IMG/VR virus record: IMGVR_UViG_3300013132_000200
Coordinates: 1 to 28,045 of that record
Source of the DNA: a virus
Taxonomy: Duplodnaviria > Caudoviricetes
Direction: 5' to 3' (one strand)
Length of the DNA stretch: 28,045 nt
This document shows, piece by piece, positions 24,182-28,045 of this stretch (positions are counted from its first letter, which is position 1; each line of letters begins with the position of its first letter). Below the pieces are notes generated by a model. It was not told the DNA's origin. It saw only the letters and a list, made by a program, of their open reading frames with translations, and did not search any database. A program made the position numbers and the translations under genes.

Positions 24182-25102
24182 ATGAGCCTTGAAGAGTATT
24201 CAGCAGATATAGTTCGTGTTCCATTGCTGACATCCGACGAAGAGATAATACTTGGGGGATATATCCAGAAAATGATAAAAATTCTCAGGGACAACGGGCT
24301 AAATGAACAAATATCGCAAAAAAATCTTCTTGATTCCACTAAAAATTTAAGTCCAGAAGCGAGGTTAGTAATAAAAAGAGGGCTGAGAGCAAGAAGTCGA
24401 ATGATTTCAGCAAACATGAGGCTCGTGGTCGCTGTTGCAAAAAAAATTAAAACAACGCAAACTCATCTTACGATTCAAGACTTAATTCAAGAAGGTGCAA
24501 TTGGTTTGACCAGAGCATCTGAAAAATTTGAGCCAGGTCGTGGATATAAATTCAGCACTTACGCCTACTGGTGGATAAGGCAAGGAATAGTAAGGGCCAC
24601 TGAGTCTCAAGAGAAGGCAATTCGAATGCCATCGAATATGCAGAAAACAGCAAGGCAAATCAGAGAAACCAGAGATAAATTGACGTTAATTCTCAAAAAA
24701 GAGCCGACAGTCGCTGAGATAGCTATTGACATGGAAGAGGACATAGAAAAAGTAAAAAAAACCTTGCTTGCTGATTCGGTAGTTGTTTCTTTGGACTCGA
24801 ATGTAAGCCAAAGTGGCGATCAGATTTCGTTGCTGGAGCTAATTCCAGCAAGCGCGTCAGACGAAGATAACGACGACAGCCTCGAAAAAATAAACTTTAT
24901 CTTAACCATTATCAGCGCTTTGCCAGAAGAAGAGCAAGAGCTTGTCAAGCAAAAGTATGGAATTGGCTGCCAACCTGTTTCAGCAAAAGAAATCGCAGAA
25001 ACTAGCGGAATCAGTAAACATGCCGTCCGCCAAAAACAACAAAATATCATCAAAAAAATTCAATATGTCGTAAATACTTTTTTTTCTAGTCAAGTCCCTT
25101 AG
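24182..25102 (+). CDS. RNA polymerase sigma70 factor (cyanobacterial group 1/2-like)
   Basis: region 1.2 VPLLTSDEEI; region 2 ANMRLVVAVAKK, DLIQEG..GL.RA.EKF.P.RGYKFSTYAYWWIRQGI; region 3 IRMP...EPTVAEIA; region 4 HTH. Confidence 0.93.
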   Translation: MSLEEYSADIVRVPLLTSDEEIILGGYIQKMIKILRDNGLNEQISQKNLLDSTKNLSPEARLVIKRGLRARSRMISANMRLVVAVAKKIKTTQTHLTIQDLIQEGAIGLTRASEKFEPGRGYKFSTYAYWWIRQGIVRATESQEKAIRMPSNMQKTARQIRETRDKLTLILKKEPTVAEIAIDMEEDIEKVKKTLLADSVVVSLDSNVSQSGDQISLLELIPASASDEDNDDSLEKINFILTIISALPEEEQELVKQKYGIGCQPVSAKEIAETSGISKHAVRQKQQNIIKKIQYVVNTFFSSQVP

Positions 25103-25191
25103 ATCGGATTTATTTTTATTTTAATCCCGCTGCCGCCAGTCGTCGCGTTGCTCACGTCGAAACCAGCTGAGGCGGTAGTTCGCTGACAGCA

Positions 25192-25350
25192 TCAATATAT
25201 CGCGGGTGCGTTAACCATAGCCAGCAGCCAAATAGCGTGCCATGTGCCAAAAAGTAAAATTGCCCCTAGCAAGCCCGACCAGAGTGCAACGCGCAATTCA
25301 TGTCGTCTGATCGCTTGCTCTATTAGAGCTTGGATGTCCTCTCTGCTCAC
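25192..25350 (-). CDS. small membrane protein
   Basis: GTG start; SREDIQALIEQAIRRH plus one TM helix, pattern recalled from picocyanobacteria and their phages. Confidence 0.55.
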   Translation of the reverse strand: MSREDIQALIEQAIRRHELRVALWSGLLGAILLFGTWHAIWLLAMVNAPAIY

Positions 25351-25446
25351 TGCTGCCTTCCTTTGGGCAAACTGTAGGTGCACACTACGGTTGAGAACAC
25401 CATGGCCAGCAAGCAAAGATTGCCACAGCTTAGGCAACGCGACTTG

Positions 25447-25584
25447 ATGCCTTATGTAACGGTTGGCACCGATGTGCGTGGTTCAGCATGTTGGTTGGTA
25501 ATTGATCGTGATGTTGTAATCGAATGTATTAGCGGTGAGCGTGCGTTAGCGGTGATGAAAAATTTAATTATCGCCAAAGGTTGA
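25447..25584 (+). CDS. small hypothetical protein
   Basis: ATG 25447 (MPYVTVGTD...), 45 aa. Confidence 0.45.
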   Translation: MPYVTVGTDVRGSACWLVIDRDVVIECISGERALAVMKNLIIAKG

Positions 25585-25604
25585 TCAATAACTTGGTGAT
25601 GTTT

Positions 25605-26984
25605 TTAGCGTTCAGCAATAATTGCCCAGCCTTTGCCAGGGGCGTAGCGATAGGCACCACCGCCGATGGGCTCCACCATCCAGCGCTTGCCGAAATTGAG
25701 GCGGTTGTAGCGCATAAATCGCGCCACTCCGCCCAGAGACTCACCACTGAGCAAGTTCGCTTCTCCGAACGGGTCGTGAACAATCAAATGCGTGGGATCT
25801 TGACCCACCACGATCAGCCAGTGACCACCGCCGGTGGGTTGCTCCACTGGACCGCGATGGATGAAGCCACAAGGCACTGGCACTCCGACGGCAATCTGGC
25901 GTTCGATCAGCGCAAAAGATGCGTTCTGCACGAATTTGGCCTTGATACCGTAGCTGCTCAAAGCCTTGAGCTGAGCAGCGGCATCAGTGGTGTCGCCGTA
26001 CTGCTGGACACGCTTGAGATACTGATCGTCACCGTTGGAACCGATGAATGTGCCAGGTTTGAGGTACTGCAGGAGCATCGCGCAGGAACTGCTGAAGCAC
26101 ATACGAGCCGCTTGGCTGCGATCAACGCTGTCCATCTGCGCATACCAGGGCACCTGCAGCGGATTGCCATAGCCAAGAGAAGTGCTTGGCTGCGATGGCG
26201 TATTGGGGAATGCAGCCGCAGCCCGAGCATAGTAGGCCTCTCGATCTGCCAATCCGTTTGCTGGGTCTCTTCCATTAACCCGAGCTGATATTTGACGGCA
26301 AGTTGCACCCGAGTCGCAATAAGCATTCATGCCATTGAGATGCCACCAAAAACCAGCAGAAGTAAAGGGATATTTGTTGGCTACATAGGCCGCCCCATCC
26401 ATAACATTTTGATCTTTGATAAAATCAGCAAATTGTTGATAGTTGTAGCGTCCCGTAAGCTGAATTGCGCCAGCGCCTTTGTAGCGCGGGCCATCGCCAG
26501 GCCTTGCGTTCCCCAAATCTTTGCGGTCTTCGTAAGCGTCGCCGCTGGCCAGCTCCATCATCCAACGCAATCCACCGGATTCATGCCCAACTTGAGCCAA
26601 GAAATGGCGAATTCGAGCTGGGGTGTTAATTAAAAAACGCTGCAGGCAGGAGTTGAGATCTGCAAGCTGGCTGTCCCTGGGGGCTCTGGTGAACACCGCA
26701 GTCGCCTGGGTCATGCTGATCATCTGAGAAGTCGCCGGAGTAGTCACTGGAGACGCCAGCAGGGGGGCCTTCGTCTCCACTGCCGCCTTCCAGATGTCTC
26801 GAAGCTCGCCGCCTTCCTGGAGGGCTTCTGGGTCAAGCTCCGCCAAGCGATCAAGTACGGCCTGAAGCCAAGCTCGGTGATGAGCTTTGCTCGGGTTGTA
26901 GTGATTGACGTAGTTACCGTTTGGAATTTTGCCCACAGGTGTTTCAATCACGTTTCCACGGAGCTTTGATTTCCATTGCACCAC
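25605..26984 (-). CDS. endolysin: GH19 (chitinase/lysozyme-like) plus C39-like cysteine peptidase
   Basis: [31 protein letters not shown] (GH19); [23 protein letters not shown] (C39-like triad); true start may be GTG 26951. Confidence 0.88.
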
Positions 26985-27174
26985 CTAGCAAGCGGCTATC
27001 ACCAGTCTGCAGGGTGTCATCAATTGGGTGCTCAATGATGTTTGGCGGTGGCGGCTCAGGTTGTGCCGCGTGCCAGGCGTCCACCTGCTGGTCGATGGAC
27101 GCTAAGGTCTTGTGCTCATTGATGAGCATTCGAGCTTCAGCATCCTGCGGCTTGGTGGTGAACAGGGTCACCAT
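26944..27174 (-). CDS. hypothetical protein; candidate -1 frameshift extension of the upstream small ORF
   Basis: ORF open upstream to the GGGAAAG heptamer at 27207-27201. Confidence 0.65.
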
Positions 27175-27177
27175 TGG

Positions 27178-27207
27178 AAGGCCGAGGTTCGGCCTCAGCG
27201 CTTTCCC
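27178..27207 (-). other. candidate programmed -1 ribosomal frameshift signal
   Basis: in-frame G_GGA_AAG, 4-nt spacer, hairpin GAGGCCGA-ACC-UCGGCCUU. Confidence 0.7.
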
Positions 27208-27335
27208 GGCTTAATGGCGTAGAGCGCCTGCAGGATGAGCTGGATGATGCTATTGGACTTCAGCGGGCTGAGTGCGATCAGCTCACTGAGGGCAGCAAGA
27301 ACGATCCAGAAGGCAGGATGGTTGATGACTTCCAC
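27195..27335 (-). CDS. small holin-like membrane protein (46 aa)
   Basis: hand-translated VEVINHPAFWIVLAALSELIALSPLKSNSIIQLILQALYAIKPGKR; hydrophobic, basic C-terminus, upstream of lysin. Confidence 0.7.
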   Translation of the reverse strand: MEVINHPAFWIVLAALSELIALSPLKSNSIIQLILQALYAIKPGKR

Positions 27336-27337
27336 GG

Positions 27338-27586
27338 TTAGGAGCGCGGGTGCGCTTCTAGTTTAGTCACCCGCTGCTCGACTACGCCAAGGCGCTGGAA
27401 GGTCTCCTTACGGTCATCTTTGATGTCAGTGTGCAGCACTTCCAGCTGGGCAGCAATGTGCTCGACTGCGCTGGTGAGGCGAATAACTGCATCGCGTGCT
27501 TCATCATTGCGGCGGCTAAATCCCATAGCACCCATCGCCGCCACTGAGATGGATGCACCAGCAACAGCAGCAAGCACTTCAATCAT
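27338..27586 (-). CDS. membrane-anchored coiled-coil protein (holin-like)
   Basis: N-terminal TM plus heptad coiled coil, in lysis cassette. Confidence 0.7.
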   Translation of the reverse strand: MIEVLAAVAGASISVAAMGAMGFSRRNDEARDAVIRLTSAVEHIAAQLEVLHTDIKDDRKETFQRLGVVEQRVTKLEAHPRS

Positions 27587-27595
27587 GGCTTCAGT

Positions 27596-27736
27596 TTAGC
27601 CCCTGCCCTGGCCACGCAACTTCTTGCGGCCGCGCCGCCTTGGCCTTGAATGCTGGCCCTGCCCGATTGAGGTGACTTTTGGTGGGCCGGGTTTGTACTC
27701 AATGTGAGCGGCACCTTGCTTATTGCGTACAGCCGT
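27596..27736 (-). CDS. small basic RGQG-ending protein; lacks canonical start (ACG)
   Basis: (T/M)AVRNKQG...PGPPKVTSIGQGQHSRPRRRGRKKLRGQGRG; resembles a small basic cyanophage family. Confidence 0.45.
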   Translation of the reverse strand, partial: TAVRNKQGAAHIEYKPGPPKVTSIGQGQHSRPRRRGRKKLRGQGRG

Positions 27737-27971
27737 CGCGGATTTGCTGGTTGAGGTATTCTCGCAGTGCTTTGTCTGCGGCTGTTGGGTTTGTTTTTAG
27801 GCTTAGCTCGAAAATGCGATCCCGGAGTTGCTGCTTACGGGCAGCGCAAAACTGTTGTTGTACCTCCTGGGACTTTGCGTAGCGATTGTCGATTGTCAGT
27901 GTCGTGCCAACAATGGCCGCAAGTACAGCACCAGCAGCGGCGAGCAGTTGCAGCGGTTGTTGCATGGTCAT
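27720..27971 (-). CDS. membrane-anchored hypothetical protein
   Basis: N-terminal TM, IDNRYAK, helical C-terminus; ATGA overlap. Confidence 0.65.
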   Translation of the reverse strand: MTMQQPLQLLAAAGAVLAAIVGTTLTIDNRYAKSQEVQQQFCAARKQQLRDRIFELSLKTNPTAADKALREYLNQQIRDGCTQ

Positions 27972-28045
27972 TCAAGCTCTAGCGACAATGCTTCGACATC
28001 CTTGCGGCTACCGTATAAAGTTTCAAATTCAGTGGCGCTGAGCAT
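27968..28045 (-). CDS. 3' end of an upstream gene (partial)
   Basis: open frame ...MLSATEFETLYGSRKDVEALSLELE* whose stop overlaps next ATG. Confidence 0.45.
   Translation of the reverse strand: MLSATEFETLYGSRKDVEALSLELE

Follow-up and report, generated by a model that had tools for sequence, protein, structure and literature searches.

Comparative evidence for a programmed -1 frameshift in a holin-like gene beside the endolysin of a probable picocyanobacterial phage

The stretch of DNA analyzed here (the window) is a contig of 28,045 bases that constitutes a whole assembly by itself and encodes a DnaB-like helicase, a replication initiator, an SSB, a sigma factor, and an endolysin. The runs matching the window best were lake and freshwater metagenomes. 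Homologues of its 46-aa ORF1 are present in six cultured Synechococcus phages (S-EIV1, S-CBS1, S-CBS3, KBS-S-2A, WH11-B, and S-B28), suggesting that the window most likely belongs to a freshwater picocyanobacterial phage. The minus strand carries, in order, a hydrophobic ORF of 81-83 aa, an 82-aa ORF, ORF1, ORF2 in the -1 frame, and the endolysin gene, with the following features:

27720..27971, minus strand: 81-83-aa protein with an N-terminal hydrophobic stretch (no match below E 0.02)
27338..27586, minus strand: 82-aa protein, a second holin-like candidate, with an N-terminal hydrophobic stretch and a coiled-coil-like tail (phrog_26178, E 5.1e-41)
27195..27335, minus strand: ORF1, a 46-aa small membrane protein (putative short form) with a GTG start (phrog_22542, E 3.3e-20)
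27201..27207, minus strand: in-phase (X_XXY_YYZ) slippery heptamer G_GGA_AAG, followed by one codon and then the ORF1 stop
27178..27196, minus strand: 8-bp hairpin, 4 nt 3' of the heptamer, a possible local stimulator
26944..27207, minus strand: -1 frame extension (ORF2) adding 85 aa; soluble, predicted to form one long helix, with a linker rich in Pro and a C-terminal motif that is conserved
27172..27174, minus strand: ATG of an apparent ORF of 76 aa; relatives L003 and L010 have ACG here, and the codon probably encodes an internal Met
25605..26951, minus strand: endolysin with a chitinase-like domain and a C39-like peptidase (PF13529, E 8.4e-09; phrog_10051, phrog_181, phrog_14712)

The likely start of the endolysin gene is the GTG at 26951, which overlaps the stop codon of ORF2; in the ORF list this frame starts at 26984. 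The 82-aa neighbor also matched the hemolysin family phrog_937 weakly (E 0.006), and proteins resembling it stand upstream of ORF1 in many loci. A phage-encoded sigma-70-type factor (24182-25102, plus strand) faces the lysis cassette, as is also seen in S-CBS1, S-CBS3, and KBS-S-2A. No Rfam matches were obtained within 25000-28045.

The initial annotation had proposed a -1 frameshift at the end of ORF1, and all of its coordinates proved correct on re-examination. ORF1 ends in CCG GGA AAG CGC TGA, which sets the heptamer GGGAAAG (27207-27201), the slippery site of lambda G/GT, in the X_XXY_YYZ phase. From 27207 the -1 frame runs through 87 codons before reaching the TGA at 26946-26944, includes the ATG at 27174, and joins 45 residues of ORF1 to 85 of the extension in a predicted product of 130 aa. 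In each of two runs (X1 and X2), one 90-nt contig covered 27154-27243 with zero differences or gaps relative to the window, and none of the four runs compared had an indel listed there. Because the identical contig spans the junction in two runs, the junction is not an assembly indel. For background, the fetched loci contain 1537 other ORFs with a length of 120 aa or more. A canonical in-phase heptamer falls within the last five codon positions of 16 of them, 3 of which had an open -1 frame of at least 50 codons; among 237 other ORFs of at least 40 aa in the window, one had a heptamer and none had an open -1 frame. The slip-site arrangement thus exceeds chance.

To follow the arrangement across relatives, loci were gathered through ORF2 (48 loci), four ORF1 alignments, and six annotated phage regions, giving 277 loci after de-duplication; since from each viral scan the best 80 were kept out of 157-573 confirmed stretches, this set is not a random sample. 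A heptamer in the last five codon positions, followed by an ORF2 profile match, occurred in 206 of the 277 distinct loci, bearing out the expectation that an in-phase heptamer and an open -1 frame are conserved among homologues. The in-phase heptamer itself was present in 216 of the 277 loci and in 206 of the 207 having the domain, and in all of those 207 loci the domain was in the -1 frame and continuous. The only locus among the 277 carrying the domain without a canonical site was L172; the domain in L424 is likewise without one. Ten of the 277 loci had a heptamer and no ORF2 profile match, and six of these carried podovirus-type extensions that looked related by eye; in L142 the heptamer is followed directly by the endolysin. 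Neither heptamer nor domain was found in 60 of the 277 loci, including two spurious ORF1 matches (L144 and L145) that were removed from the codon, start, and tree analyses. As about one fifth of the homologous loci (about 58 real ones) are without both site and domain, the long form appears to be optional. Three loci, L069 (2626-2860), L072 (2629-2680), and L325, kept the heptamer with a -1 frame that stops after 31, 13, and 22 codons, respectively; L069 looks decayed, because the ORF2 C-terminal motif persists beyond the early stop.

The heptamer occurred mainly as AAAAAAG (161 loci), CCCAAAG (34), and GGGAAAG (15), variants that encode different peptides. The sites nearly always end in A_AAG, the most shift-prone heptamer ending in bacteria. 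Where ORF1 ends in F-P-K, proline was encoded by CCA in 31 of the 32 loci that have the domain and in 1 of the 33 that lack it. Before Lys-Lys in the first locus set, alanine was always GCA (31/31) and glycine always GGA (35/35), against background frequencies of 0.26 and 0.14, and in the same set proline before GGA AAG was CCG in 13 of 13 cases. These codon choices indicate that the site is probably under selection beyond the encoded peptide. Locus counts overstate independence because the loci are related: the tree of the short protein required 13 state changes for ORF2 and 12 for the heptamer, and only 3 independent pairs lay on well-supported branches (p 0.25). For this tree, L314 and L317 were also left out, and the six podovirus-type HMM-negative extensions were relabelled by eye, for the tree only. 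Given that the slip site tracks the presence or absence of the downstream frame, the ORF1 gene very likely makes both a short and a long protein. Taken together, comparative genomics strongly supports a programmed -1 frameshift.

Across 77 pairs, pN/pS was 0.18 both for codons 5-29 past the heptamer and for the final 25 codons, and 0.22 for the middle part, suggesting that the -1 frame is protein-coding and under purifying selection from just past the stop. Extensions vary in length between 44 and 105 codons, always preserving the frame. The extension is predicted to be soluble and mildly acidic, with a hydropathy of at most 0.5 and no second membrane segment or lipoprotein cysteine, and its structural model showed one long helix at 20-48 (pLDDT 68.7, pTM 0.37). 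No match was found for it in PDB sequences, Pfam, PHROGs, or NCBIfam, nor in a Foldseek viral fold search (best E 2.5); an Atlas serpin match (0.88, 67-106 of 256 features) was treated as noise.

Initiation within the extension was also considered. Before the conserved core, 83 of 97 extensions had no ATG and 47 of 97 had no ATG, GTG, or TTG, and because start codons are so often absent there, independent initiation cannot explain the family. The initial annotation had pointed to the lack of a Shine-Dalgarno sequence at the ATG at 27174; the observation is true, and carries little weight, since no inspected start in the cassette has one. For the same reason, some initiation at 27174 may occur in this phage.

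Relatives of the ORF2 domain were also seen in other settings. L048 (2357-2686) encodes, in a non-lysis context, a protein of 109 aa that stands alone, begins with a Met of its own, and carries the C-terminal motif of ORF2 (phrog_22672, phrog_6464). The domain also lies in the -1 frame after membrane proteins not detectably ORF1-like (approximate coordinates): in L015 (2193-2707) behind G_GGA_AAG, in L040 (2295-2776, phrog_9685) behind an imperfect C_UCA_AAG, and in L047 (2080-2596) behind U_UUU_UUC; homology of the L040 upstream protein to ORF1 was not detected (E 0.22). The ORF2 module may be portable between membrane-protein families.

Several database proteins (P0005, P0010, P0189, P0196, and others), some of them found on 12-23 contigs, read as natural in-frame fusions of the two ORFs. 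This reading failed on the DNA: the closest locus, L467, 98% identical to P0189, is split at A_AAA_AAG, and no fused locus was found among 77 and 82 loci with a detectable ORF1, two sets that overlap each other and the earlier loci. The fused proteins are probably joins made by indel-correcting gene callers, and they do not enter the case made here. Many other database proteins (P0012-P0037) continue ORF1 in the wrong frame at the A run, again probably through indel-correcting gene calls, and such entries are a caution against protein-level evidence for fusions.

The hairpin that the initial annotation had placed 4 nt after the heptamer, with 8 bp at 27196-27178, is present in the window. It folds at -12.3 kcal/mol with a z-score of -3.65, a value inflated because the 26-nt piece was picked around the hairpin, and of -1.96 over 71 nt. 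The close relatives L003, L010, and L062 keep its core, L003 with a single A-U pair in place of a G-C pair. Beyond these closest relatives, a role as a conserved stimulator was unsupported: the mean z over 84 sequences was only -0.26 to -1.06 in 40-nt windows at 0-20 nt, and hairpins at a spacer of 3-10 nt occurred in 22% of 104 representative loci versus 8-39% elsewhere by a rough local-fold measure. An upstream SD-like stimulator was also absent in 184 of 206 loci. As neither stimulator is conserved, shifting efficiency may be low.

ORF1 shows a 17-residue hydropathy of up to 1.9 and a net charge of +2. Its N-terminal helix is hydrophobic and bears an invariant Ser-Glu; a K-x-N-S turn and a second helix, which is amphipathic, follow, and the protein ends in basic residues. 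The two-helix model is of low confidence (pLDDT 59.8) and was built on the doubtful fused database proteins. The family comprises 223 representatives at E up to 0.001. In its small size, membrane segment, charged C-terminus, and adjacency to an endolysin (64 of 72 classified next ORFs), ORF1 resembles a holin, and no match named holin was obtained for it or 38 relatives in Pfam, PHROG, NCBIfam, or PDB. From its size, hydrophobicity, basic tail, and position, we infer that ORF1 is a candidate holin. The six cultured phage records have no holin annotation around ORF1, save for an HNH-like 'endonuclease holin' in S-B28. ORF1 is unannotated in the GenBank records of S-EIV1 (L049:4001-4138) and S-B28 (L052:3001-3135); ORF2 appears as a separate truncated gene in those of S-EIV1, S-CBS1, and S-CBS3, and is missing from those of KBS-S-2A, WH11-B, and S-B28.

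Gene order agreed with the earlier placement of the pair in a lysis cassette. A long same-strand ORF came next in 72 of 103 representative loci (31 had none to classify), and the 64 that matched PHROG endolysins belong to several unrelated catalytic types. This gene order suggests that the module probably acts in lysis. In L067, L069, L070, L071, and L338 the module lies between an upstream C39-like peptidase and a downstream lysozyme. In the myovirus locus L012 (854-1841) it lies just before tail terminator and baseplate genes, the position of the P2 lysis genes. In the podoviruses WH11-B and S-B28, ORF1 has tail genes on one side and packaging genes on the other, the position held in T7 by gp17.5. 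The latter is a holin, as stated in the accessible part of PMC8365609. Other neighbors of the module include HNH genes in L134 and L140 and an opposite-strand gene in S-EIV1.

These observations are consistent with the following scheme. Some ribosomes would slip back one base at the in-phase heptamer, very probably by re-pairing of tRNA-Gly and tRNA-Lys, to yield a minor long form. The cassette would then produce a 46-aa membrane protein and a rarer 130-aa form, which have a reasonable likelihood of serving as a holin-like protein and its fixed-ratio regulator in lysis. Under the positive-inside rule, the basic end of a membrane protein stays cytoplasmic, and since the ORF1 C-terminus is basic, the soluble tail would lie on the cytoplasmic side of the membrane. 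At somewhat under even chances, the long form would modulate the short one, assembling with it by way of the membrane part common to both and shifting lysis timing. Only shifted ribosomes would terminate on the endolysin start, and endolysin synthesis might be coupled to the shift rate as a side effect.

The broadest version of this scheme, which we regard as rather doubtful, is a recoding-set lysis clock in picocyanobacterial sipho-, podo-, and myoviruses, in which a portable soluble module on a new holin family of 45-50 aa supplies an antiholin at a fixed ratio and endolysin translation is metered, with the module perhaps sitting on more than one membrane-protein family. If true, lysis timing would be tied to the translation state of the host.

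The position of the endolysin start bears on whether the frameshift chiefly meters endolysin, with shifted ribosomes stopping on its start and re-initiating there and the tail being secondary. By rough motif-based start calling, an endolysin-like start lay 1-29 nt before the extension stop in 144 of 206 loci, and, among the 58 loci that lack the extension, 35 had one at -5 to +6 nt from the ORF1 stop; the window shows the common -5 overlap between extension stop and endolysin start. Because of these overlaps, the shift may couple endolysin translation too, and a frameshift in the MS2 coat/lysis genes is given as a precedent in the accessible part of PMC10885494. Against metering as the chief function, purifying selection acts at the protein level along the whole extension, and site and extension persist where no endolysin comes next (S-EIV1, the podoviruses, L012, L134, and L140), a retention which argues that the long protein itself matters. 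In addition, the MS2 model was later revised to termination-reinitiation without a frameshift, and we consider metering as the main role improbable. Slightly more improbable still would be a real frameshift whose two products serve assembly or another non-lysis membrane function. The absence of a holin family match and the adjacency of some modules to tail terminator, terminase, or HNH genes would suit such a role, as would the predominance of structural and chaperone genes among known phage frameshifts in the accessible parts of PMC10885494 and PMC6316719; however, the unrelated catalytic types among the 64 endolysins of 72 next long genes argue for lysis, as do the podovirus and P2-like positions, which match those of the T7 and P2 lysis genes. 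A spanin-like or outer-membrane-disrupting long form with a periplasmic tail would fit a membrane anchor joined to a long helix and a Pro-rich linker, and no spanin was identified in the examined part of the window. Nevertheless, the short form ends in basic residues, which points to a cytoplasmic tail, the extension has neither a second membrane segment nor a lipoprotein cysteine, and it is missing from many loci, making this proposal very improbable.

Two further alternatives concern how the downstream frame is reached. That ORF2 is an independent gene read from its own ATG (27174 here), the heptamer being incidental, draws on the presence of that ATG, on the uninformative absence of a Shine-Dalgarno sequence in a cassette devoid of them, and on the stand-alone relative with its own Met in L048. 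It is nonetheless hardly credible, since the ATG is ACG in close relatives, 47 of 97 loci offer none of the three start codons before the core, every one of the 207 domain-bearing loci reads it without a break in the -1 frame, and synonymous slippery codons track its presence. RNA polymerase slippage on an A run, suggested by the six A in 161 of 216 heptamer loci, would leave unexplained why G_GGA_AAG and C_CCA_AAG, with three A only, show the same arrangement; strict codon phase and a terminal G fit tRNA re-pairing instead, and six A is a short run for polymerase slippage; this origin of the long form is extremely improbable. We favor ribosomal slippage giving a holin-like short form and its rarer extended version. 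The frameshift appears to be a real and widespread instance of an established kind of recoding, in a type of gene for which the literature searched gave no earlier description.

Phage lysis of Synechococcus-type cyanobacteria is ecologically large and its mechanism little known. A candidate holin family and its recoding signal can now be named in cultured phages, and natural slip-less variants exist. If the proposal is true, lysis genes would join the structural and chaperone genes in which tailed phages use programmed frameshifting, and records in which the ORF1 and ORF2 frames are split, truncated, or missing would be corrected.

The frameshifts dealt with in the accessible parts of PMC12846349, PMC4299906, PMC6316719, PMC10885494, and PMC13704836 concern tail, capsid, and MS2 coat genes; dual-start holins are covered there as well. 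A full-text literature search of partial coverage, which does not prove absence from print, returned no report of a frameshifted holin-like gene, and the accessible part of the S-LBS1 paper (PMC6157547) mentions neither a holin nor a frameshift. The signal itself is of the same class as in the lambda-like tail chaperones G/GT, whose -1 frameshift is described in the available parts of PMC6316719 and PMC12846349: a heptamer at the 3' end of the short gene, an open -1 frame, and two products. In contrast to G/GT, a soluble pair between the major tail and tape-measure genes, the short product here is a 46-aa membrane protein by the endolysin, the long form appears dispensable in some lineages, and no tail chaperone family or fold match was found for the module. 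A frameshift that brings ribosomes to a lysis gene start was proposed for MS2 coat/lysis (PMC10885494, as far as accessible), although MS2 is an RNA phage and no heptamer-defined fusion protein is involved there. Two small membrane-protein genes beside an endolysin are likewise found in XhlA/XhlB of PBSX and in gp24.1/gp26 of SPP1, for which the accessible parts of the sources mention no frameshift. The membrane helix of XhlA is C-terminal according to the excerpts of PMC6316719, whereas the hydrophobic stretch of the 82-aa neighbor is N-terminal; no significant homology was found. A further parallel is given by the dual-start holin/antiholin genes, lambda S105/S107 and SPP1 24.1/24.1* and 26/26* (PMC6316719, in the part available), in which, as predicted here, one lysis-cassette gene gives two membrane proteins at a set ratio. 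Those pairs arise from alternative starts and differ in a few residues at the N-terminus, whereas the pair described here would differ by an 85-aa C-terminal domain added by recoding.
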